Below are positions 2,954 through 64,000 of a stretch of DNA of 64,000 nucleotides, piece by piece. Source of the DNA: Escherichia phage vB_EcoP-101114UKE3. Below the pieces are notes generated by a model. It saw only the letters and a program-made list of their open reading frames with translations. It was not told the DNA's origin and did not search any database. Made by a program: the position numbers and the translations under genes. The first letter of the stretch is position 1, and each line of letters starts with the position of its first letter. The stretch lies in sequence record NC_070982.1; one strand, 5' to 3'.

Positions 2954-3172
2954 ATGAAAATGATGAAACAGGTAACTTATGGTCTAGCTTGCTTAGGGAC
3001 AGGTTTTGTGATTTCCACAGCAGTACCTGTAAATGCAGTAGGCTCTCATTCTATTATAGAAGCTCCTGTAGAGAAGCTTAGTTCTCAATGTAAACAAAGG
3101 ACCATTCAAAATAATTTGGTTGTTATTTGCCCAGACGCTCAATCTTCAGCTCTGAGAAAAATTCTTCCTTAA
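2954..3172 (+). CDS. small membrane/secreted protein (holin candidate)
   Basis: SD aaaggag; N-terminal hydrophobic segment VTYGLACLGTGFVISTAVPV; immediately upstream of lysozyme. Confidence 0.35.
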   Translation: MKMMKQVTYGLACLGTGFVISTAVPVNAVGSHSIIEAPVEKLSSQCKQRTIQNNLVVICPDAQSSALRKILP

Positions 3173-3205
3173 TTGACCTAAAATAACAACAAAAGGAGGT
3201 CAAAG

Positions 3206-3697
3206 ATGGACGCTATCGCATTGCCGCCTATACAGATGAGCCTAAGTCCGGCTGGTATGGAGTTTATCATGAAGCATGAAGGCATGAGAACTAAAGCCTA
3301 TAAAGACTCCGCTGGAATCTGGACTATATGTGTAGGGGCTACGCGCGATATGAATGGGTATCCAGTAAGACAAGGATTAACGTATTCTATAGAGGATTGT
3401 CTAGCTCTGCTAGATAGAGACACACAAGACTCTGTTCGTGCTACTCAGAAAAACATAAGAGTTCCTATGCTAGCTCATGAATTTGATGCTGTCACTTCTT
3501 TCAACTTTAATGTTGGTGGTGGTGCTTTGTCAGCTTCAAAACTTAGGAAAGTGATCAACGGAGATGTGAAGGGTGATGTTTACTCAGAGTTCTTACGTTG
3601 GGATAAGATAACTGTTAAAGGTGTAAAGCAGCGGAGTCCGGGACTTCACAATCGCAGGGTTGCAGAAGCAAATCTATACACTACAGGAAAATATTAA
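3206..3697 (+). CDS. lysozyme (GH24 muramidase, endolysin)
   Basis: HEGMRTKAYKDSAGIWTICVGAT motif typical of T4/lambda-type lysozymes; SD aaggagg. Confidence 0.8.
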   Translation: MDAIALPPIQMSLSPAGMEFIMKHEGMRTKAYKDSAGIWTICVGATRDMNGYPVRQGLTYSIEDCLALLDRDTQDSVRATQKNIRVPMLAHEFDAVTSFNFNVGGGALSASKLRKVINGDVKGDVYSEFLRWDKITVKGVKQRSPGLHNRRVAEANLYTTGKY

Positions 3698-3709
3698 TGG
3701 AGGTGCCTT

Positions 3710-4513
3710 TTGGCTATCGAAACAACTGCGGTAGTTACTACCGATTTAAACCCCCTATACCCACGGGACAGGGATTATCTTTATGAAGGGGCTGCCCAGA
3801 TACGACTGGTCAAACAAGTATTAATTAACACCTTTCCTAACATCACAGAGCCAGTTCAACTTGACTCAGATTCTTTCAACATCTTAGCAAACAAGGTTTC
3901 CTTTACTGGAGATTCTATGGATGTTGGAGGTTTGATGATCAAAAACTTAACTCCGGGAACTGGTGATAAAGATGCTGTAACCAAAGGTCAGATGGAAGCT
4001 TTCATGTTAAACTGGATGCAGAATAAACTCTATCGTATTGGGGCTTACTATATCACTGAAGAAGATATCAACCCCGGAGATTCTAGCTCTCTTGGTTTTG
4101 GTTCTTGGGCTAAAGTAACTGGTGTTGTTATGGGTACTGGTGTTGTTAACCCTGATGGCTCTGTTCCTAATGCTCAGCGTGTAGAGTTCCAAGCAGGTGG
4201 TACTGGTGGTCGTGTATTTAACACAATTCGTGCTGACAACATGCCTCTGACTACAATCAATGGTTCTAGTTTTCAAGTTAGTTCTTATTCTCACTCACAT
4301 AATATCACAATGGGTCGTGGAGATGCTAGTGGTCACAACAGCAGTCCTAATTGGTATAGTCCGGGTGGTGGTTATACTCAGGTAACTGACACTAACACCC
4401 ACTCTCACTCAATTACAGGTTCTGTTAGTTTTGGACGTGATGATGTATCGAGACAACCCATCAACACTTTGCCGCCTTTCAGAGCAGCGCATATCTGGAG
4501 ACGTATTAGCTAA
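3710..4513 (+). CDS. tail fibre protein with HxH repeats; probable TTG start
   Basis: In-frame stop at 3695-3697 leaves TTG 3710 as only start, GGAGG SD 6 nt upstream; SHSHNIT and THSHSIT motifs resemble metal-binding HxH repeats of fibre tips. Confidence 0.5.
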   Translation: MAIETTAVVTTDLNPLYPRDRDYLYEGAAQIRLVKQVLINTFPNITEPVQLDSDSFNILANKVSFTGDSMDVGGLMIKNLTPGTGDKDAVTKGQMEAFMLNWMQNKLYRIGAYYITEEDINPGDSSSLGFGSWAKVTGVVMGTGVVNPDGSVPNAQRVEFQAGGTGGRVFNTIRADNMPLTTINGSSFQVSSYSHSHNITMGRGDASGHNSSPNWYSPGGGYTQVTDTNTHSHSITGSVSFGRDDVSRQPINTLPPFRAAHIWRRIS

Positions 4514-55489: not shown

Positions 55490-55693
55490 TTAAGCGCAAG
55501 CACTACGCAGTTTGTTATTCAAGAAGCGATCTTCTGCATTATACAGGAATGCATAGAACAACTCTTTTGCTACATCCCGATCGCAATTGAGACATTTAGA
55601 GATCTGTAACAACAAACCATCACGACTATTAGGATGGTCAATTATCGCAAGACGAATAATCTCACGAATACCAATGTCATGCTCAGCCGCCAT
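55490..55693 (-). CDS. small hypothetical protein
   Basis: 67-aa ORF. Confidence 0.35.
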   Translation of the reverse strand: MAAEHDIGIREIIRLAIIDHPNSRDGLLLQISKCLNCDRDVAKELFYAFLYNAEDRFLNNKLRSACA

Positions 55694-56083
55694 AGAACCA
55701 ATCACCCTGACGTTTACGAATGTTAGTTGTCAGACGAAGCATGGCAGACTCAATCTTCAGAGCACCATTTGCTACTGCATCCATACGTTCAGGACGGTTC
55801 ATACGTTTGGTTGTCTTTTTCATAATGTTCTCTCTTTATTGATGGAGGCAGGATTGCCAGTTAATATAAAGGGAAGCCCTACACGTTAAGACTTCCGCTT
55901 GTACAAACTGTCGAGAACTCTCTACCCCTAGATTGTTCTCTATCCCAAACCGATACATACCCCTACATATCGGAAAGCTGTTCGAAAATTAACAGGTTTT
56001 AGTCTATCACCGGATGTTTGAGACAAGTCTCGCCCTAGCGGTGAGCCATATGGCGTTGAGATTATAGTTAATTGAGGAACACC

Positions 56084-56130
56084 CTCACATAGCCCTCTGA
56101 TAAACACAAGGGCTATAAGTCGATGTTACT
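56084..56130 (-). repeat. conserved hairpin element, copy B
   Basis: CACATAGCCCTCTGATAAACACAAGGGCTATAAG directly after stop of 56130..56360. Confidence 0.5.
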
Positions 56131-56360
56131 TAACCATTAATATGAGTTACTTGAACATCAGGTACAGGGATAACTTCATGGTCTTCCTGTAATTGGAACA
56201 GTGTCCCCTGACTAAGACCAACCACACGATGCATATCGTTAAGTCTAGTGTCTGTCTTTAGGTAGACATTTTCAGAGTTAGTTGGTAAACGGAACACATC
56301 GCCCGGACGTAACTCACTGAGCTTTTTAGTAACAACTACAGAGAAGAGATTAATTTTCAT
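56130..56360 (-). CDS. small protein, five-member paralog family
   Basis: LRPGDVFRLPTNSENVYLKT ... VVGLSQGTLFQLQED. Confidence 0.45.
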   Translation of the reverse strand: MKINLFSVVVTKKLSELRPGDVFRLPTNSENVYLKTDTRLNDMHRVVGLSQGTLFQLQEDHEVIPVPDVQVTHING

Positions 56361-56533
56361 TTGATTAACACCAAATCAGTACGACGTTCGAAGGAAGGGG
56401 AGGATTCACCATTCCACTGAACAAGATAACAGAGAACACCATCAATCGTTGTTCTCCGACGAATAACACCTGTAACAGTTCCACCAACAAGACGAACGGT
56501 GTCGCCAACGGTAAATTTAACCTTTGAGCGCAT
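56357..56533 (-). CDS. small hypothetical protein
   Basis: start MRSKVKF with AGGAG SD. Confidence 0.35.
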   Translation of the reverse strand: MRSKVKFTVGDTVRLVGGTVTGVIRRRTTIDGVLCYLVQWNGESSPSFERRTDLVLIK

Positions 56534-56822
56534 CTCCTGTTTCCTCATTCTGGCGTTTAATTTCTTCAGTGAGTTGCTTATTAAGATCTTGAATACGCTT
56601 AATCTCCCAACCCAAAGAAGCCAAACGATCGTTACGTGCTTCGATTTGTTCCTGCATTTTAAGTAATTTGGAACGAACATCAGCATTAAAAACTTCTTCT
56701 TGCTTAAGAAGGAACTCGTAACGACGCTTCCAGCTTGCTGATTTATTTCTTAAAATAATAAACCCTAGAGTAGAAACCGTTACAGTGAGTACGAAAAGGA
56801 ACTTATAAACCTCTAAAGACAT
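56517..56822 (-). CDS. membrane-anchored coiled-coil protein
   Basis: N-terminal TM then helical E/K-rich region. Confidence 0.4.
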   Translation of the reverse strand: MSLEVYKFLFVLTVTVSTLGFIILRNKSASWKRRYEFLLKQEEVFNADVRSKLLKMQEQIEARNDRLASLGWEIKRIQDLNKQLTEEIKRQNEETGDALKG

Positions 56823-57023
56823 ATCTTTATCCTCTTAAAGTAAGATATTATAAGAAATATTATTTAGAATTTATTATTTCTAAACTTAATTCCTATCAAT
56901 AATTTTCAGAGGTCTATATACAGTCATTACCTCTGGTCCCAAATCACTTCCACTTTTTACAGAGAAAATCATAAGTGTGTGATTTATAAGGAAATTTAGT
57001 TTGTCAATATTGGCACTTATGAA

Positions 57024-57410
57024 TCAGTCACGGGAGCTGTTATTGAACACTAAATCACCACAATACATCGGATTGGTATACCACTTTGGCACCCCTTCGC
57101 TCTTACTCTGAAAGTATGTACCGCTGTACAAAGGCACATAACCTTTCTTCAGTGCACGCCTTGCAAGCCGCTCGCTCTCTCTGATTGATTTCTTTATCAG
57201 AGGGTTATCATCACGAATTAGCTTTACATAACGCTTAAAAGGTTTCTCCTTCTTTAATAGGACGGGTATCCACTCGAACTGGTTTCGTTGATTTATAACC
57301 TGCTCGGCAGTCAGTTTTCGTTGTGACATTCTGTTTATTACGGTATCCGCTACTAATGCTTTGCAAGCGGTTGGCTGATTCCCTGCCTCATAATAAATAG
57401 TCAATGTCAA
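57024..57410 (-). CDS. SleB/CwlJ-like cell-wall hydrolase domain protein
   Basis: IYYEAGNQPTACKALVADTVINR matches IYAEARGEP..AV..V.NR core motif. Confidence 0.5.
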   Translation of the reverse strand: MTLTIYYEAGNQPTACKALVADTVINRMSQRKLTAEQVINQRNQFEWIPVLLKKEKPFKRYVKLIRDDNPLIKKSIRESERLARRALKKGYVPLYSGTYFQSKSEGVPKWYTNPMYCGDLVFNNSSRD

Positions 57411-57462
57411 AAGTAGCTGGGCTGTCGTTATCAGAACTTACTACCCCCTTGTTTTACGGGCA

Positions 57463-57489
57463 TAAAAAAGCCCCATCCGAAGACGGGGC
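57463..57489 (-). terminator. intrinsic terminator (TTCG hairpin plus U6)
   Basis: minus-strand gccccguc-uucg-gauggggc (G-U only on this strand) then uuuuuu. Confidence 0.55.
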
Positions 57490-57727
57490 GACCTGAAAGA
57501 GTGAACATGACCTCACTCATTTAAGAATCCTCGTAAAGACTCTTAAAAAAGAGGCCTCGTTAAAGGCCCGGTCAAATGACCATCCAATAGGGATTGAACC
57601 ATGCCAATGATTCACAAAGGGAGTTCCCTTTAGGTATCACTAGCTACGCAAAAAGCCGCACAAAGGCGGCAGACAAAGACGCTCAAGAAGAGCGTCATAG
57701 TAGTTGACCACTGGTCCAGAAGAGGGC

Positions 57728-58171
57728 TTACTTAACTCTTGCTGTTTTGAGTGGGTCAATATATTTTTCAACTCCCCACTTATGTTTACTATCAGCGTAG
57801 AAAACATCTGGTGCACATTGGCTAGTAGTAGGAAATGCTTTCGGTGGCTTAGTGCTACCTTTATTCTTCTGCTTACCTTTAGTGCGACCATTACAAAAGA
57901 TTTCTAAACGTTTTTCTTGTTCTGTTTTTGCTGCACCATTGGTTAACAGAGAACGCTTGTGATCAGCAAGAAGAAGCGCATCAGCACGATGAACACGACG
58001 ACCTAACACCTTCGCTACGGTAGAAGGTTTATGTTCTTGAGCGGCTTGTTTGATAGCTCTTCGTTTAAGGCTACGTTTGCTAATATGGTTAACAGCGGCT
58101 GGCTTTTCTTTTTCCAGCTCATTCATAGAGAACACTCGTCCGCCTTTCATGCTGATTTTAGATTTAGCCAT
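57728..58171 (-). CDS. hypothetical basic protein
   Basis: 147-aa K/R-rich ORF. Confidence 0.4.
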   Translation of the reverse strand: MAKSKISMKGGRVFSMNELEKEKPAAVNHISKRSLKRRAIKQAAQEHKPSTVAKVLGRRVHRADALLLADHKRSLLTNGAAKTEQEKRLEIFCNGRTKGKQKNKGSTKPPKAFPTTSQCAPDVFYADSKHKWGVEKYIDPLKTARVK

Positions 58172-58241
58172 TGTTTTATTCCTTTCGCTGATAAATTATA
58201 TCATGCAAGCCTTACCACATAGCAAGGCTTAACCAAATAAC

Positions 58242-58451
58242 TTAATCAATTAAACTAAACGATTTCCAACTACGTGTAATTGCTACCTTTTCGCCATCAA
58301 AGAGAACACTTACAGAGATCAGTTTACCGCGACAACTGGATACCGTGGTAATACGTCCGGTTAATGCCTTACCTTTATTCAGGTAGTGATAGCGGACACG
58401 ACGTCCTAACAAACGAGTAGCTTTCTTCTCTAACGTGCTTAAGCTGGTCAT
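58242..58451 (-). CDS. small hypothetical protein
   Basis: 69-aa ORF. Confidence 0.35.
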   Translation of the reverse strand: MTSLSTLEKKATRLLGRRVRYHYLNKGKALTGRITTVSSCRGKLISVSVLFDGEKVAITRSWKSFSLID

Positions 58452-58672
58452 TAAATAGCCCCTTTATGTTGGAGTGATCTTACACGACGATACATAACAG
58501 TTGATGCACTAATCGCCGCTTGTTTTCTTTCGTGCTCATGCTGATTCTTTCGAATCTTATCCATCTCGGCATCATTACGACGACGTTGTAAGATTCTGCT
58601 ACATTTGCGATGGTTGTTATTAGCACGTGCTTTCTTACAGATAGGGCAAAGGTGGGATTGAGTTAAAATCAT
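58451..58672 (-). CDS. small basic zinc-finger protein
   Basis: CPIC...C motif. Confidence 0.35.
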   Translation of the reverse strand: MILTQSHLCPICKKARANNNHRKCSRILQRRRNDAEMDKIRKNQHEHERKQAAISASTVMYRRVRSLQHKGAI

Positions 58673-58893
58673 TTGCGAAGCCCTAACTTACGAAGGAATC
58701 GGCCTAGCTTAGTTTCCTGCGTGATAGTGTAAGTAACAGAGTTTTCAATCAATGCTTGTTCTTGAATCGGCGACGGATACCACTCGCCAGTAAGAATGCA
58801 TTTGCATTCGATTCCGTATTTATCGGTTTTACGATATGTCATGTTGTTGAGAATGTTACGATACATCTTAACTTCTGTTTTCAGTTTTGGCAT
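58669..58893 (-). CDS. small hypothetical protein
   Basis: 74-aa ORF. Confidence 0.35.
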   Translation of the reverse strand: MPKLKTEVKMYRNILNNMTYRKTDKYGIECKCILTGEWYPSPIQEQALIENSVTYTITQETKLGRFLRKLGLRK

Positions 58894-59001
58894 GGTGTTT
58901 ATCTCTTTTTAGTTTCTTTGATTAGTACACTGAATCAATGCACTAGTAAAAGAAAAGGCGCTACCCTTTCGAATAGCGCCTTATGTGTTCTTTATTGTTG
59001 G

Positions 59002-59904
59002 TTATGCTGCCTGTTGGCGTGCTGCCATGATTTCGGCAGCTTTGCGCAACACTTCTTCTTCTTCCTGCGCAGCTTTCTCGTTCGCTTTGATAGTTGAAGC
59101 ATTTGAGATGCGACCACGAAGGTTAGACAATTTTTCAGTCATTTCGTTGATCGCTTTTTCCATTTCATCAGCGTATGAGTCCAGAGATTCAAGCTCTTTA
59201 GTCGAGGCATTAATCAGGTAGTCGTCGCTGATAGATACAGTTGATGCGGTCACTTTCTTAAGGAGTGAATCGAAAGTTTTCTTAACTTTGCCTACTTCTT
59301 CACTCAATGCGATAGTATTGTCAGAAGATGCGCCGTTGCGTTCATCTGCCAGTAGTGCCGCTTCAATACGGATTGCAGCCAGACGGTCAACCAGTGCATA
59401 AATATCCTGATTAAAGTTTTCGTTAACCTTCTGGTTGATTTGATTTGCTACCGGAACATTGTCGTTGCAACCTTTGTAGAATGCTGGGTTATCAACCTGC
59501 ACGTCTTCACCTTTAGCAAAGCGTTCAAAGGAATTAGACCAGCGGGCGCGGTTTTGTTCCATTTTGGCCTTAACTTGTTCCGGTTTAGCATCCTCTTTCG
59601 CTTTCGCTTCACCTTCCAGATTAATCCATTTCTTTTTACCGTTCGCCCCGTCAGTGTTATATTTGATAGGAGTAAGGAAAGAGATTGCAACCGAAATTAC
59701 ATCTAAATCACGATAACGCTCAGTTAACAAGAAATCAACCGCCGCCTGCAATACATCCAGTTTCTTACCGTTGGTGCGGAAGTGCTGCAAATGGCCTAAC
59801 AGGAAGTTAGAAACATCTTGTTTGATTGCCGCGTTGTTGCTACGAATGTTGTTAGCCAGTGCATTAAAGCCGGATTCGTTAACCAGATTAAAAACTTTAG
59901 CCAT
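59002..59904 (-). CDS. hypothetical early protein
   Basis: ATG 59904 (MAKVFNL) with AAGGTG SD; helical with E/K-rich C-terminus. Confidence 0.45.
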   Translation of the reverse strand: MAKVFNLVNESGFNALANNIRSNNAAIKQDVSNFLLGHLQHFRTNGKKLDVLQAAVDFLLTERYRDLDVISVAISFLTPIKYNTDGANGKKKWINLEGEAKAKEDAKPEQVKAKMEQNRARWSNSFERFAKGEDVQVDNPAFYKGCNDNVPVANQINQKVNENFNQDIYALVDRLAAIRIEAALLADERNGASSDNTIALSEEVGKVKKTFDSLLKKVTASTVSISDDYLINASTKELESLDSYADEMEKAINEMTEKLSNLRGRISNASTIKANEKAAQEEEEVLRKAAEIMAARQQAA

Positions 59905-59971
59905 GATATTCACCTTTCAATTGTAAGGGCACTATGCCCCGCTCTCTATGAGCTTTTTAAGTCACTATTGA

Positions 59972-60007
59972 CTTATCAATAATCACTCAATATCAAGTAA
60001 TTATTGA
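59972..60007. promoter_or_regulatory. perfect 11-bp inverted repeat TTATCAATAAT / ATTATTGATAA
   Basis: arms separated by about 15 bp, 70 nt upstream of first early gene. Confidence 0.4.
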
Positions 60008-60720
60008 TAAGCGAGGCGGTCTTATCAGGAGTTAACCTTGCCGCCTCCTTATCCGTGATGTTTCATCTGGTATCTTTAATTAGTCGCTATAAATAAAGCC
60101 GACCTGATAGCGATGATCAATCATCACAATAAGGCAGTGCGTCCGACTCTATTTAATTACTTTATCGTAACCGTCGGCAATATCGTCTACTTTGCTTTCG
60201 CTCCCGCCTATCCTTTTGTACTAACTCTCAATCGCTAACCATCGCCCACTACGGGAGGTTATTGCGAAAGAGTCATTAGCCGTCTAATACATTGACGTTT
60301 TATATCTTTCAGCAGGTTTACTACATAAACTGATTATGTACGCCATCAATAGTGGCCTCAAATCATTCACATCGTAAACGTTCACACTAAACCTTATTGT
60401 TAAATAGCAATTTGCCACTTTTTAACCATTCACCGCCGCCCCCAATTGGGCGTTAATTCGTCGGATTTGCCTACCCTGATAAACTTCTTTCACTGTAGCA
60501 CCTTGTTAGCGATGGCCGCCGCTACCCTTTAACCGTGGGCGATTAGTTTAGGCCGTTGCGTGTACTCAATGAATCCGTTTTATCAGTGGTGACGTTTCCA
60601 GTTAAGGGATTGTAAAAACTGTTTACCCTGATAATTTAGGGAGTCTTACGCCGTTTTATCTGGTATGTTTTCCGATGGTTATTATCATCCAACATATTCA
60701 ACCGATATAGGAGAATGTTT

Positions 60721-60737
60721 AAATTGTTAAAGAGCGG
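60721..60737. repeat. 17-bp repeat AAATTGTTAAAGAGCGG (copy 1)
   Basis: exact copy at 61088-61104; core TTAAAGAGCGG also near 60958 and partial near 61498. Confidence 0.5.
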
Positions 60738-60823
60738 TAAATCTATCAGTGTGCTTTCTCACACTATGCAACTGTTAGCCGTTGTTACGCTTTTCTTAAG
60801 CGGTGAATTGCTTAAGTGTGCTC

Positions 60824-60852
60824 ATTATGAATCATGCTGTTTTAGCTGTCAA
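60824..60852 (-). promoter_or_regulatory. sigma70-type early promoter P1
   Basis: minus-strand TTGACA, 17-nt spacer, CATAAT. Confidence 0.5.
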
Positions 60853-60990
60853 CCGCTTTTTTAATCTTTTTCGTCGTTCCCTTTATTGGGAGGATATATC
60901 AATCAGCTATATTTGATTGAAGATTAAGCGGTAAGGCTTAACTCACGATTCATATTTTTAAAGAGCGGTGTTTCTTACTGCTTGGTGAAC

Positions 60991-61018
60991 ATTCTATCAG
61001 AGTATTTCACCTTGTCAA
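60991..61018 (-). promoter_or_regulatory. sigma70-type early promoter P2
   Basis: minus-strand TTGACA, 16-nt spacer, extended -10 TGATAGAAT. Confidence 0.5.
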
Positions 61019-61087
61019 CTCTTTTTATCATCTTCTTTTATTCTATTCCCTTATCTCGCTTGAATCTATGCGAAAGGGCAAGATGAT

Positions 61088-61104
61088 AAATTGTTAAAGA
61101 GCGG
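61088..61104. repeat. 17-bp repeat AAATTGTTAAAGAGCGG (copy 2)
   Basis: exact repeat of 60721-60737. Confidence 0.5.
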
Positions 61105-61149
61105 GGCACTAAGTGCCGGATGTTTCAAGTCATCGCTGACCGTGTGAAC

Positions 61150-61177
61150 ATCTTATCATAATGATTCGATGTGTCAA
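61150..61177 (-). promoter_or_regulatory. sigma70-type early promoter P3
   Basis: minus-strand TTGACA, 16-nt spacer, extended -10 TGATAAGAT. Confidence 0.45.
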
Positions 61178-61239
61178 CAACTATTTTTCGATTAATGCAT
61201 CTTGATAAACTAGCGACCGTTAAGGCCGCTAACCTTACC

Positions 61240-61440
61240 TTAGTTCATACGTTTAAAGGTTAAATCTTTATCTGTACTTACCAGCGATAACACCGCAATA
61301 GCTTTGCCTTTATCGGCATCGGCTACCATCTCTTTTGCCTGCTGTAATGTACTACCGACTATTCTCATAATCATGTTAGTAACGTTAATGCTAGTGCAAG
61401 TGATTTGCGTGTCTTTGCTTGAGAAGGTGTAGATGTTCAT
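61240..61440 (-). CDS. small hypothetical protein
   Basis: start MNIYTF with GAGGA SD. Confidence 0.35.
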   Translation of the reverse strand: MNIYTFSSKDTQITCTSINVTNMIMRIVGSTLQQAKEMVADADKGKAIAVLSLVSTDKDLTFKRMN

Positions 61441-61799
61441 TGATAAATCCTCGTTATGGCATGGTTGAGAGTTTATCAAGATACACTAATCGAATTATTA
61501 AAGAGCAAGGCTAAACATCTAGCCTATCAGGAGGTAACTTACTGCATCACGTCCTGATAAGATTCAATATACACTATCCTAAAACCGTTGCAAGTCTTTT
61601 TCTAAAATAATTTCACTTTCTTTTAGGCATAAAGGAACGAACACACGAATAACATCAAGGGAGGAAGAAAACAAGCTCTATAATCGAAATCTAGGCACAT
61701 AGGAAGCATCCTAGCGAGCTAAACAGGGGCAAGATGTGCAATCACCTTAGAAATGAAAAAAGCGCCTCAAAAGGGCGCTTAGAGAGTCTTACGGATTGG

Positions 61800-62126
61800 T
61801 TACGGATTGGTGCAAGTGCCGTTACCGGATGATATTTCGTTCATCGACTCATCGAACAACGTCATGCTAGACCGCATCATGTGATCTATAGTGATTTGCT
61901 TTCCGGTAATTTCGTTAACAAGCATTGCAGACTTACTATCAACTATCTTGCTGTCGTAGTCGTTCAGGTCAATCAATACTACCTTGCTGGACTTCTTGCC
62001 AGTGTCGTAGTTTTCCATAAGATAGGTGCATTGCAGACCATCTAAACTAGCCTCGTTGAATACGGCAGCATAGGACACGGAAGAAATAGCGAACAAAGCA
62101 GAACATACAGCTAATTTAATTTTCAT
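61800..62126 (-). CDS. small secreted protein
   Basis: signal peptide MKIKLAVCSALFAISSVSYAA. Confidence 0.45.
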   Translation of the reverse strand: MKIKLAVCSALFAISSVSYAAVFNEASLDGLQCTYLMENYDTGKKSSKVVLIDLNDYDSKIVDSKSAMLVNEITGKQITIDHMMRSSMTLFDESMNEISSGNGTCTNP

Positions 62127-62218
62127 GATCCAACCCTTAAGCGGAACGTGCAACAAAGAAAAACAAGTCATAGATAAATGCTATGATACAGAGAACTAAC
62201 AGACAATGCAAAAAATAC

Positions 62219-62491
62219 TTATGTAACATTACTCACCACTTTATCTAGATGATCATCGAACGTTTCACAAATGGATTGCACTTCGTCAATATCTAGTAAC
62301 AGACCGTGACGGGCAAAGAATTGAGCTAACTCAAGATAATCCGCACCAATAAGCATGACACCATTGAAAGGGGCGATCTTAACATCTTGAGATGTTACCA
62401 ATAATAAATTACCAATATCAGCAATAGCGTCATAATTCAGCGTAACGCCTACACCGTAATTGTGTGTTTCAATAATGGCAATAGTTTCCAT
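62219..62491 (-). CDS. hypothetical acidic protein
   Basis: 90-aa ORF coupled to upstream gene. Confidence 0.4.
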   Translation of the reverse strand: METIAIIETHNYGVGVTLNYDAIADIGNLLLVTSQDVKIAPFNGVMLIGADYLELAQFFARHGLLLDIDEVQSICETFDDHLDKVVSNVT

Positions 62492-62493
62492 CG

Positions 62494-62742
62494 TTAATTA
62501 TCCTCGACGGTTAGTAGTTCTTCCAGTGACAAACCGGATTTAACCAGCAAATCACGATATTCGTTAGCATCCATCGGATCGAGGCCGGATAATCGGGCAA
62601 CGGTCATGCGTGCATGTGCTGAAGACAAGGAAGCTAAAGCACGGATAGGGATCAATACAAGCCCATATTTACCGCTGATAACTAAATCACCGTGCTGGAT
62701 GCACATATGAGCATTTACTACGATTGCAAATGATTCATTCAC
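62494..62742 (-). CDS. hypothetical protein
   Basis: 82-aa ORF, start overlaps upstream stop. Confidence 0.4.
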   Translation of the reverse strand: MNESFAIVVNAHMCIQHGDLVISGKYGLVLIPIRALASLSSAHARMTVARLSGLDPMDANEYRDLLVKSGLSLEELLTVEDN

Positions 62743-63239
62743 TGGATAGCCTCACAATTAGCAAAGTTAATAAAGGTTGTATAAACTGCTACACCGTCAT
62801 GATATGCAGTCGTAGCGAGTATGGTTTCACTTACATCACCATAGCTAACGAGATTAGTTACAAACTGTAATTTCTCTTTCTCAACCTTCTGATACAGAGA
62901 ATACGTCACCATATCGTGATCACTATCAGCACGTTTCAATTTAATGACTGACTGAGTGCCGGATTTCTCGCCCAATGGGGTAAGAGTGACACGCACATTA
63001 GCGGTAGTGACTTCATTGAAGTGAACACGCCAGAATGCATCATTGCCATCACTTCCAACGTCACGGCAAGCCATATCAGGAGCGTTCTTAAATGTGCTAA
63101 CAAAAGATTGCAGACCAGTAGGAGCGGATAACCTCTTATCATCTTTAGCCTGCACATTGGTAGCGATAGCACTAACACCGATAGCTGCAACCAGTGCATA
63201 AGACGCTAGATTGATAGCCTGCATTGCTTTGATAGCCAT
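62739..63239 (-). CDS. secreted/periplasmic protein
   Basis: start MAIKAMQ with AGGAG SD; signal peptide ending ATNVQA. Confidence 0.45.
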   Translation of the reverse strand: MAIKAMQAINLASYALVAAIGVSAIATNVQAKDDKRLSAPTGLQSFVSTFKNAPDMACRDVGSDGNDAFWRVHFNEVTTANVRVTLTPLGEKSGTQSVIKLKRADSDHDMVTYSLYQKVEKEKLQFVTNLVSYGDVSETILATTAYHDGVAVYTTFINFANCEAIQ

Positions 63240-63520
63240 TATTACTACTCCTGATAGATGAAAGATTGTTTGTCGTGTGTAGTTACTTAGGCTGATCAAC
63301 CTTCACTACTCACTATCACCGCTAACTACTTTACATCACTGCTTCATTAACGATAATTCAAACTACGATTGCAACTATATATTAAAGGAAAAACATGTCA
63401 ACCACTTATTTTCAAACTCTTTCATAACTCACTGAATATAAAAGGAATTTAATTTACTAAACTTTCTTACTCAGAGATACAGCTTACCAAATAGATGTTA
63501 TTTTATAACACTTACAGAAC

Positions 63521-63615
63521 GGGTAGCAGACCAACGGGATAGATAGATGGGTAAGACGTGCCGCATAGGTTAGCCAATGGGTAAGAAGCCTAACGAGGAA
63601 GGGGAAACGGGTAGG
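63521..63615. repeat. cluster of five GGGTA(A/G)G-type short repeats
   Basis: GGGTAG, GGGATAG, GGGTAAG, GGGTAAG, GGGTAGG at 13-30 bp spacing in ORF-free DNA. Confidence 0.45.
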
Positions 63616-63688
63616 ATATAATGTAAGTTAGTTACAGGTAACAGGTCAGACCATGCGGTAATAAATTACCAGTCAAATTCCTACTCAT

Positions 63689-63760
63689 CAAAAGAAAAAA
63701 GAAACGCTGAAAAAAGAAAAGAATAAAAGAAAGAATAAAAATAATAACTAAAGTAAACAA
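63689..63760. repeat. 70-bp purine (A/G) tract on plus strand
   Basis: aaaagaaaaaagaaacgctgaaaaaagaaaagaataaaagaaagaataaaaataataa. Confidence 0.5.
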
Positions 63761-63848
63761 CTACCAGTCTAATGATACATACATCAATAATCCACTCATG
63801 AAACATTAACATAGGTTATTACTATTAAACTTGGGGTAGTGTGAGGAT

Positions 63849-63857
63849 TGTTATAAT
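63849..63857 (+). promoter_or_regulatory. extended -10 element TGtTATAAT (rightward)
   Basis: perfect TGnTATAAT; weak -35; target lies beyond window. Confidence 0.3.
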
Positions 63858-64000
63858 TGCATGGTGTTACCATTACTAACCTCACTATGATAGCCCTTAC
63901 TATTAGCCCTCTTATTATCACCCCTTAACAGTACATCAGAGTCTAGCCTTTCATCCTTCCTTAACATGAGTAGAAGAAATACGGGTGGGATATTACTGGT

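Follow-up and report, generated by a model that had tools for sequence, protein, structure and literature searches.

The window analysed here, 64,000 nucleotides of Escherichia phage vB_EcoP-101114UKE3 (NC_070982.1), contains a region poor in open reading frames (ORFs) directly upstream of the homologue of phiEco32 gene 124 (gp124). We propose that this region is probably a unit organised like a ribosomal RNA (rRNA) operon, in which antitermination through Nus factors and BoxA would allow the host RNA polymerase to traverse a long untranslated RNA and to reach early genes devoid of promoters. A 17-nucleotide repeat of the region turns out to be, on the transcribed strand, an rrn-type BoxA, and the ~0.8 kb from the last BoxA to the first gene (about 60790-59926, minus strand) are, as judged from comparative sequence analysis, a conserved multi-domain structured RNA under purifying selection. 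The window belongs to a Kuravirus-type (phiEco32-like) podophage and the ORF-poor region is a spacer already known to lie ahead of the gene 124 homologue; what is new is the identity of the repeat as BoxA and that of the ORF-free DNA as a structured RNA. In a database comparison, bases 59900-61250 were 100% identical to Escherichia phage vB_EcoP-101114BS3 and mostly 81-99.6% identical to the other 95 matching phage records, nearly all of them from E. coli phages and including phiEco32, SU7, SU10 and the BASEL phages Bas86-94, of which Bas86 reaches 99.6%.

rrn-type BoxA elements behind tandem promoters

The original prediction, made from the letters of the window alone, had described the exact repeat AAATTGTTAAAGAGCGG at 60721 and 61088 with two further core copies. 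All of them are present (the core copies at 60956-60966 and 61496-61506, the second one outside the interval 59914-61240 which had been delimited), but it was overlooked that the minus-strand reading of the 17-mer, CCGCUCUUUAACAAUUU, is the rrn-type BoxA, the site of Nus factors. The corresponding sequence of the E. coli rrnB leader is ...GCGGCACUGCUCUUUAACAAUUUAUCAGACAAUCUGUGUGGG..., and the copy at 61102-61084, GCUCUUUAACAAUUUAUCA, has 19 consecutive nucleotides in common with it. The gamma-proteobacterial BoxA consensus is GYTCTTTAANA (Baniulyte et al. 2017, PMC5725501). Four perfect matches to this consensus are gathered in the 0.8 kb from 60725 to 61506, all on the minus strand, for 0.54 expected in the whole 64 kb; one stray perfect match exists elsewhere in the window. 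Each of the four copies follows the -10 element of a predicted sigma70 promoter by 24-90 nucleotides on the same strand, and three of the four are preceded by a hairpin, as in GGCACuuaGUGCC-cc-GCUCUUUAACA, in the order known from rrn leaders. At the level of sequence, the region of the 17-mer thus presents consensus, sense orientation, promoter-proximal position and upstream hairpin of an rrn-type BoxA antiterminator. A lambda-type nut site was also considered and rejected because the order of the elements is reversed, with the hairpin before BoxA and not BoxA before boxB; this decision was taken on element order, no N homologue having been searched for.

The three leftward promoters with TTGACA boxes announced by the original prediction, two of them with a TG extended -10, were recovered with scores of 10-11 out of 12. 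The total number of promoter-like matches in the region is no higher than in shuffled sequences (13 for 9.0 +/- 3.3), and the three TTGACA promoters are the highest scorers, lie on the same strand and recur in the relatives. Upstream of them, a first module which combines a weaker promoter and BoxA is found again in SU7, PAS59, TH43 and NC-B. The other early promoter, near 63401, is without BoxA and heads a translated operon.

The arrangement is conserved. In all 19 GenBank relatives examined, the transcribed strand, and it alone, has 4-5 perfect copies of BoxA with TTGACA promoters in between; the number of modules and their flanks differ from one phage to another in a mosaic fashion, and the core GCTCTTTAA is invariant. 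A lack of conservation of the 17-mer in related genomes, named by the original prediction as a result that would refute it, is decisively not what is observed, the BoxA core being identical in all relatives examined. Seven uncultured relatives, found through gp124 homologues 45-69% identical on contigs of 22-100 kb, all show 2-3 perfect BoxA copies on the same strand, alternating with strong promoters. Their last BoxA is located 870-936 nucleotides upstream of the gp124 homologue, for 831 nucleotides in the window, and in six of the seven the gene callers placed no gene in between; the exception, L042, has a called ORF of 71 amino acids which its close relative L050 does not have. The hairpin before the last BoxA is kept in the distant relatives with other stem sequences and with purine-rich loops like the rrnB boxB loop. 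Pattern scans of IMG/VR and of metagenomes returned close relatives only.

A large structured RNA ahead of gp124

The 886-nucleotide minus-strand sequence from 60790 to 59905 folds with a predicted energy of -262.4 kcal/mol, well below that of dinucleotide shuffles (z = -7.55). In order to avoid circularity, the structure was predicted from the window sequence alone and then scored on a plain MAFFT alignment of 20 relatives (A1), which were 76-96% identical in an earlier MAFFT alignment of these phages. For the 276 predicted pairs, 94.6% of the alignment cells are paired and 67 pairs have changed on both sides (283 cells), against 6-11 pairs (10-28 cells) when the 3' partner was moved by 1-3 columns and 38.1 +/- 3.3 pairs when the columns were shuffled. 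None of the 500 shuffles reached the observed values of cells paired, of pairs and cells changed on both sides or of the covariation score, and the count of further pair types showed no excess over the same shuffles. The result was stable when PAS59, TH34 or IMEP8 replaced the window as reference, and the RNAalifold consensus has 239 pairs, of which 74 show compensatory changes. On the pairs read in the sense of the transcript, G-U cells are much more frequent than A-C cells (586 vs 121), and the opposite strand gives a weaker fold (-247 vs -274 kcal/mol) and a smaller number of compensatory pairs (58 vs 71), which argues that selection acts on the minus-strand RNA and not on the DNA duplex.

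More distant sequences point in the same direction. The leaders of three of the uncultured relatives (L045, L048 and L049), which are 57-63% identical to that of the window, keep 74-80% of the consensus pairs, for 39-49% in the slid controls, with 52-63 double changes each, and a covariance model of the core of domain II (R1) recovered them with E = 3e-28, 5e-21 and 3e-8. The same model found nothing elsewhere in the window, in Salmonella phage 7-11 or in the T5-like loci. All seven distant leaders fold much better than their shuffles (z of -3.2 to -11.1). In a metagenome contig of 2567 bp (L039, CYGL01003862), domains II-III are near-identical to those of phiEco32 and an unrelated AT-rich sequence replaces domain I, which may be a natural domain swap or an assembly chimera.

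The RNA fits no Rfam family. Rfam gave no match at E <= 1 across the 5.5 kb from 58500 to 64000, and the seven matches at E <= 10 for the 951 bases 59880-60830 were all far under the gathering thresholds; the models covered GOLLD, ROOL, OLE, 6S, group I/II introns, RNase P, ribozymes and others. A BLAST comparison of the RNA with E. coli genomes found no match, from which it follows that the RNA does not come from the host and that no prophage copy of it exists, and no middle/late promoter motif of the gp36 type was found within it. Coding capacity is absent as well. As the original prediction had claimed, there is no ORF of at least 60 amino acids between 59914 and 61240: the largest one inside has 49 amino acids, and two ORFs of 51 and 54 amino acids overlap the left edge. 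Hidden small proteins could be imagined from the GenBank record MZ234015, identical to the window, which annotates at 3105-4364, across the RNA, seven "hypothetical proteins" of 30-49 amino acids on both strands. None of these is conserved (of 19 relatives, 2 have an intact copy of the best sense ORF, of 44 amino acids, and 10 have one of the best antisense ORF), phiEco32, SU7 and other records annotate nothing in the region, and the pattern of substitutions is pairwise-compensatory. Short peptides are thus hardly credible as the product of the region, and the small coding sequences are probably over-annotated, since they are not conserved in relatives.

From its 5' end, the RNA consists of two small hairpins followed by BoxA, then of three domains and of five 3' hairpins (Table 1) which end 9 nucleotides short of the region of the ribosome-binding site. 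In the core of domain II, all six pairs of the helix 60316-60311 / 60208-60203 covary. The inverted repeat that the original prediction took for a perfect one of 11 bp is real and larger, with arms of 16 nucleotides (59972-59987 / 59996-60011) that are 94% complementary; it corresponds to the 3' hairpin 60006-59977, which has five covarying pairs, an identity that had been missed. The hexamers CTGATAR are, as claimed, abundant (46 in the window for 21.4 +/- 4.6 expected, nine of them within 60022-61560), and what had also escaped attention is that some of the CTGATA/TATCAG sequences serve as helix arms: in at least one case, 60586-80 with 60482-76, CUGAUAA and UUAUCAG face each other in a helix.

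Several details of the RNA deserve mention. The hairpin between domains I and II, one of the best-conserved blocks of the RNA, contains a BoxA-like sequence and recalls the second BoxA of the rrn 16S-23S spacer; the changed position 4 of UUGCUAUUUAACAAUA is one of the two sites mutated to inactivate the suhB BoxA. RNAalifold pairs the region of the last BoxA with the Shine-Dalgarno region of gp124 (60725-60745 / 59905-59918; A1 columns 55-65 / 896-906), which makes a leader-trailer-like helix around the whole RNA; it is broken in 2 of 20 sequences and shows no covariation because both sides are nearly invariant. Short sequences are also repeated inside the RNA, namely UUAUCAGGGUA (60472-60482 and 60624-60634) and AUACCAGAU(A/G)AAAC (60060-60077 and 60653-60670), the latter overlapping the invariant block CCAGAUAAAACG, and may be traces of internal duplication or a repeated binding site. 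Further upstream, the non-coding tract runs past 61240 to ~61800 with a 66-amino-acid ORF as sole interruption. This ORF is flanked by an inverted repeat of 32 nucleotides (61187-61218 / 61463-61494, 84% complementary), which might form a long-range stem in the RNA, as a processing stalk, or mark the edge of a cassette that was inserted.

Table 1. Features of the early leader region and its surroundings, with positions in the window
Feature	Position	Strand	Remarks
Weaker sigma70-like promoter, TTGCAA-16-TATATT	61566..61593	minus	first module; score 9/12
boxB-like hairpin AGGCUAgaugUUUAGCCU	61508..61525	minus	adjoins BoxA-1 directly
BoxA-1, GCUCUUUAAUA	61496..61506	minus	perfect consensus match
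66-amino-acid ORF, SU7_114 homologue	61240..61440	minus	between modules; in window, SU7 and PAS59; phiEco32 without it
sigma70 promoter, TTGACA-16-TAAGAT	61150..61177	minus	TG extended -10; A-rich upstream tract; score 10/12
boxB-like hairpin GGCACuuaGUGCC	61105..61117	minus	2 nucleotides upstream of BoxA-2
BoxA-2, GCUCUUUAACA	61092..61102	minus	perfect consensus match
sigma70 promoter, TTGACA-16-TAGAAT	60991..61018	minus	TG extended -10; score 11/12
BoxA-3, GCUCUUUAAAA	60956..60966	minus	perfect match; ~24 nucleotides past -10 element; no preceding hairpin
sigma70 promoter, TTGACA-17-CATAAT	60824..60852	minus	last one ahead of structured RNA; score 11/12
boxB-like hairpin AGUGUG-agaaag-CACACU	60748..60765	minus	3/6 pairs covary; loop like rrnB boxB loop
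BoxA-4, GCUCUUUAACA	60725..60735	minus	perfect match; within invariant block AGAUUUACCGCUCUUUAA (60744-60727)
Domain I	60427..60717	minus	closed by 8-bp helix 60717-60710 / 60434-60427; long arm 60593-60469
Invariant hairpin with BoxA-like UUGCUAUUUAACAAUA	60399..60426	minus	separates domains I and II; consensus position 4 changed from C to A
Domain II	60128..60398	minus	closed by 14-bp helix 60398-60383 / 60141-60128; core 60320-60199
Domain III	60055..60127	minus	long irregular hairpin, ~25 pairs; predicted structure
Five 3' hairpins	60051-60008, 60006-59977, 59975-59958, 59953-59941, 59940-59926	minus	predicted structure and covariation
phiEco32 gp124 homologue, 300 amino acids	59002..59904	minus	first downstream gene

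How the region may work

The data directly support the identity, the strand bias and the conservation of BoxA, the interleaving of promoters and BoxA, the covariation of the RNA and its strand, and the absence of coding potential. The following scenario would account for them. Right after DNA entry, the host sigma70 RNA polymerase would start at the 3-4 tandem near-consensus promoters, and within ~20-100 nucleotides of each start the transcript would expose a perfect rrn-type BoxA, usually behind a boxB-like hairpin. NusB-NusE(S10) would bind BoxA and, together with NusA, NusG and SuhB, would by analogy with rrn and CRISPR (clustered regularly interspaced short palindromic repeats) leaders turn the enzyme into a fast, Rho-resistant polymerase. 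The modified complex is expected to suppress Rho on untranslated RNA, to speed elongation and to chaperone the long-range folding of the RNA; it would cross the ~0.8 kb of untranslated RNA and read into the early genes behind several terminator-like hairpins. Antitermination would work on the very first transcripts, since host factors suffice. The loading of Nus factors and antitermination are thus put forward for this phage by analogy, on the basis of what is described for rrn operons (PMC4807359, PMC6614797, PMC10250234) and for CRISPR arrays (PMC7665894). The long untranslated leaders that the original prediction expected from the strong leftward promoters are supported, as predicted transcripts.

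What lies downstream is consistent with this scenario. In the 3.6 kb past the leader (55500-59100) there are eight minus-strand terminator-like hairpins (nine in total for 2.5 +/- 1.7 expected), the strongest of which (58982-58955) comes directly after gp124, and no minus-strand sigma70 promoter-like site was found in this interval (one hit in total for 7.5 +/- 2.7 expected). With such hairpins and without a minus-strand promoter of their own, the downstream early genes are predicted to depend on read-through. As for gp124, it has no Pfam match and belongs to a PHROG family of unknown function, and its AlphaFold model (predicted local distance difference test score of 78) gave no informative fold match in the PDB or the BFVD. 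The leader is more conserved than the gp124 gene in most comparisons (89.7% vs 74.6% of nucleotides for phiEco32; 86-91% for the leaders and ~75% for the genes of phiEco32-type phages). In PAS59, NC-B and TH34 the reverse is observed over window bases 59002-60720, with gp124 genes 90-97% and leaders 74-77% identical, from which we conclude that leader and gp124 recombine as separate modules; a recombination boundary lies between them.

Some points weigh against this proposal or limit it. Transcription starts, RNA ends and RNA abundance are predictions made from sequence. After the BoxA copies, no obvious boxC (UGUGUGGG-like) was seen by eye, without a pattern search. Complexes of the rrn type chiefly counter Rho and are modest on intrinsic terminators, so that the downstream hairpins lend the proposal weak support. 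The early region of Salmonella phage 7-11, which is phiEco32-like and belongs to a different family, is devoid of BoxA. The covariance model R1 did not detect the four most divergent of the seven distant leaders, whose RNA is therefore a putative homologue, and the cell counts given above overstate the number of independent events because the 20 aligned sequences are related. The literature searched mentions neither the identity of the repeat nor an RNA of the spacer, and this search left out the primary phiEco32 papers (Savalia 2008, Pavlova 2012), which tempers the novelty. Finally, BoxA can also repress, as it does at suhB (PMC5725501).

As to the role of the RNA, we tentatively consider that it may be more than a cis-acting leader, namely an RNA abundant early on and able to bind or sequester a host factor or to assemble a phage ribonucleoprotein (RNP). 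With the same reserve, phiEco32-like phages and their uncultured relatives may possess ornate RNAs of a new class, large (0.8-0.9 kb), produced by a hijacked machine of the rRNA type (tandem promoters with BoxA/Nus antitermination and chaperoning) and trans-acting very early as scaffold, host-factor or defence decoy, catalytic or assembling RNA rather than as an inert leader. A trans-acting early RNA (decoy, scaffold or RNP) would provisionally be our first choice, ahead of a leader acting purely in cis, of an RNA serving as primer or origin and of a sink for Nus factors or RNA polymerase. A purely cis-acting 5' untranslated region, whose structure would stabilise the early mRNA, time or limit the translation of gp124 or shield from RNases without any function in trans, comes next and seems to us unlikely. 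The RNA is contiguous with the gp124 mRNA, its 3' hairpins are close to the ribosome-binding site and a helix between the BoxA and Shine-Dalgarno regions is predicted by RNAalifold; this pairing, however, is the one without covariation and broken in two sequences, and leader and gene recombine independently in PAS59, NC-B and TH34. Moreover, all the cis-regulators we know of are far smaller than 0.8 kb with ~240-280 conserved pairs.

The number of elements, 4-5 BoxA copies and 3-4 near-consensus promoters in ~0.9 kb, could also be taken as the sign of a sink which draws the polymerase, NusB and S10 off the host rrn operons, and Friedman and colleagues reportedly found in 1990 that overexpressed BoxA RNA competes for NusB. 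A sink would leave the conserved downstream structure unexplained, each promoter needs a BoxA on its own transcript, two BoxA copies are enough in the distant relatives, and the phage already shuts off sigma70 transcription via gp79 (PMC12276001); we regard it as improbable. A related guess of the original prediction, decoys for RNA polymerase, is not needed. Its other suggestion, a replication origin, appears slightly less probable still, either as transcription opening the DNA as at the transcription-activated origins of T7 and T4, or as production of a structured pre-primer like the RNA II of ColE1. A non-coding region directly 3' of strong promoters and a folded RNA are compatible with such a role, but the region has no DnaA box, there is no inflection of the GC skew at 59.9-61.2 kb, the sole repeat family of more than three copies is the strand-specific BoxA, ~800 nucleotides in three closed domains are much more structure than a primer requires, and the covariation tolerates G-U and not A-C. 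Among the three guesses, the regulatory RNA came closest, since the leader is a conserved and covarying structured RNA, and neither the origin nor the decoy found support.

Relation to known systems and significance

The region is best compared with the E. coli rrn leader, which has the tandem promoters P1/P2, the order boxB-boxA-boxC and an antitermination complex of NusA/B/E/G, SuhB and S4. Common to both are strong sigma70 promoters in tandem that have A-rich tracts upstream, a BoxA placed after a hairpin and identical over up to 19 nucleotides, and further downstream a long, highly structured untranslated RNA whose domains are closed by long-range helices; even the second BoxA-like element between domains recalls the BoxA of the rrn spacer. 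In contrast to rrn, the unit is phage-borne, has 3-5 promoter/BoxA modules and not one BoxA for two promoters, its promoters are without a GC-rich discriminator, no boxC was seen by eye, and an RNA without similarity to rRNA is followed by protein-coding genes; the dependence on Nus factors is assumed here by analogy. Like the lambdoid nut sites (boxA-boxB with N), it would let early transcription pass terminators by means of a phage BoxA and the Nus factors of the host. The BoxA of lambda is weaker (CGCUCUUA), whereas the present phage is virulent and has the full rrn consensus BoxA GCUCUUUAA with the hairpin in front of it, and the system would be independent of N because no phage protein is available yet when the first transcripts have to function.

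Other systems share single aspects. The BoxA of CRISPR arrays and of suhB also stands at the start of a long untranslated transcript with the same consensus, and protects CRISPR-array transcripts from Rho (Stringer et al. 2020, PMC7665894; Baniulyte et al. 2017, PMC5725501); these BoxA elements occur singly, in host genes, and the one of suhB represses. The closest in kind to the spacer RNA are GOLLD and ROOL, phage-carried structured RNAs of several hundred nucleotides with many covarying helices, whose function is not known (PMC12286853); they have other hosts and another genomic context than an early leader with BoxA, and no detectable homology with the spacer RNA. The RNA II pre-primer of ColE1 is likewise a structured transcript of several hundred nucleotides made from a strong promoter in a non-coding region, but our region has no origin features and is followed by genes needing read-through. 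Both GOLLD and ROOL are found near tRNA genes.

In phiEco32, the counterpart of the region is an unannotated gap of ~1.95 kb between genes 124 and 125. Its three sigma70 promoters count as known, since the SU10 genome paper reports three of them in the spacer, "like phage phiEco32" (PMC4281155). Literature searches pairing boxA with phiEco32 returned no papers, the papers on Kuravirus transcripts do not mention the region, and no Kuravirus transcriptome was found in the literature searched. BoxA antitermination and large structured phage RNAs are each of a known kind, and their combination in a tractable coliphage is not described in the literature searched. For phage 7-11, the antitermination strategy "remains to be defined" according to its authors (PMC8948821).

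The same arrangement is seen outside this group. An rrnB leader query matched 128 records, with many T5-like phages among them having exact BoxA matches of 18-19 nucleotides. In the T5-like phage chee130_1 (MF431736, 2440-2520), ahead of the A2 and A1 genes, CUGCUCUUUAACAAUUU comes 14 nucleotides past the -10 of a TTGACA-17-TAAGAT promoter with an A-tract; in T5 proper (NC_005859, 4978-4988, minus strand) a hairpin GGCGG...CCGCC precedes GCUCUUUAAAA. The T5-like BoxA sits in the pre-early region (left terminal repeat), and no paper linking boxA, T5 and antitermination was found in the literature searched.

For the annotation of these genomes, the "hypothetical proteins" across the region are probably wrong. 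To the known RNAs, these phages add a large structured family which Rfam does not contain and which can be approached by experiment: as the phages grow on E. coli K-12 derivatives (BASEL, Bas86-94), genetics, nus and rho mutants, probing and cryo-electron microscopy are directly accessible. If the proposal is true, a virulent phage would commandeer the antitermination of host rRNA without the help of any phage protein and, considering the promoter and BoxA arrangement of T5-like phages, the hijacking of Nus factors by lytic phages may be widespread and overlooked.

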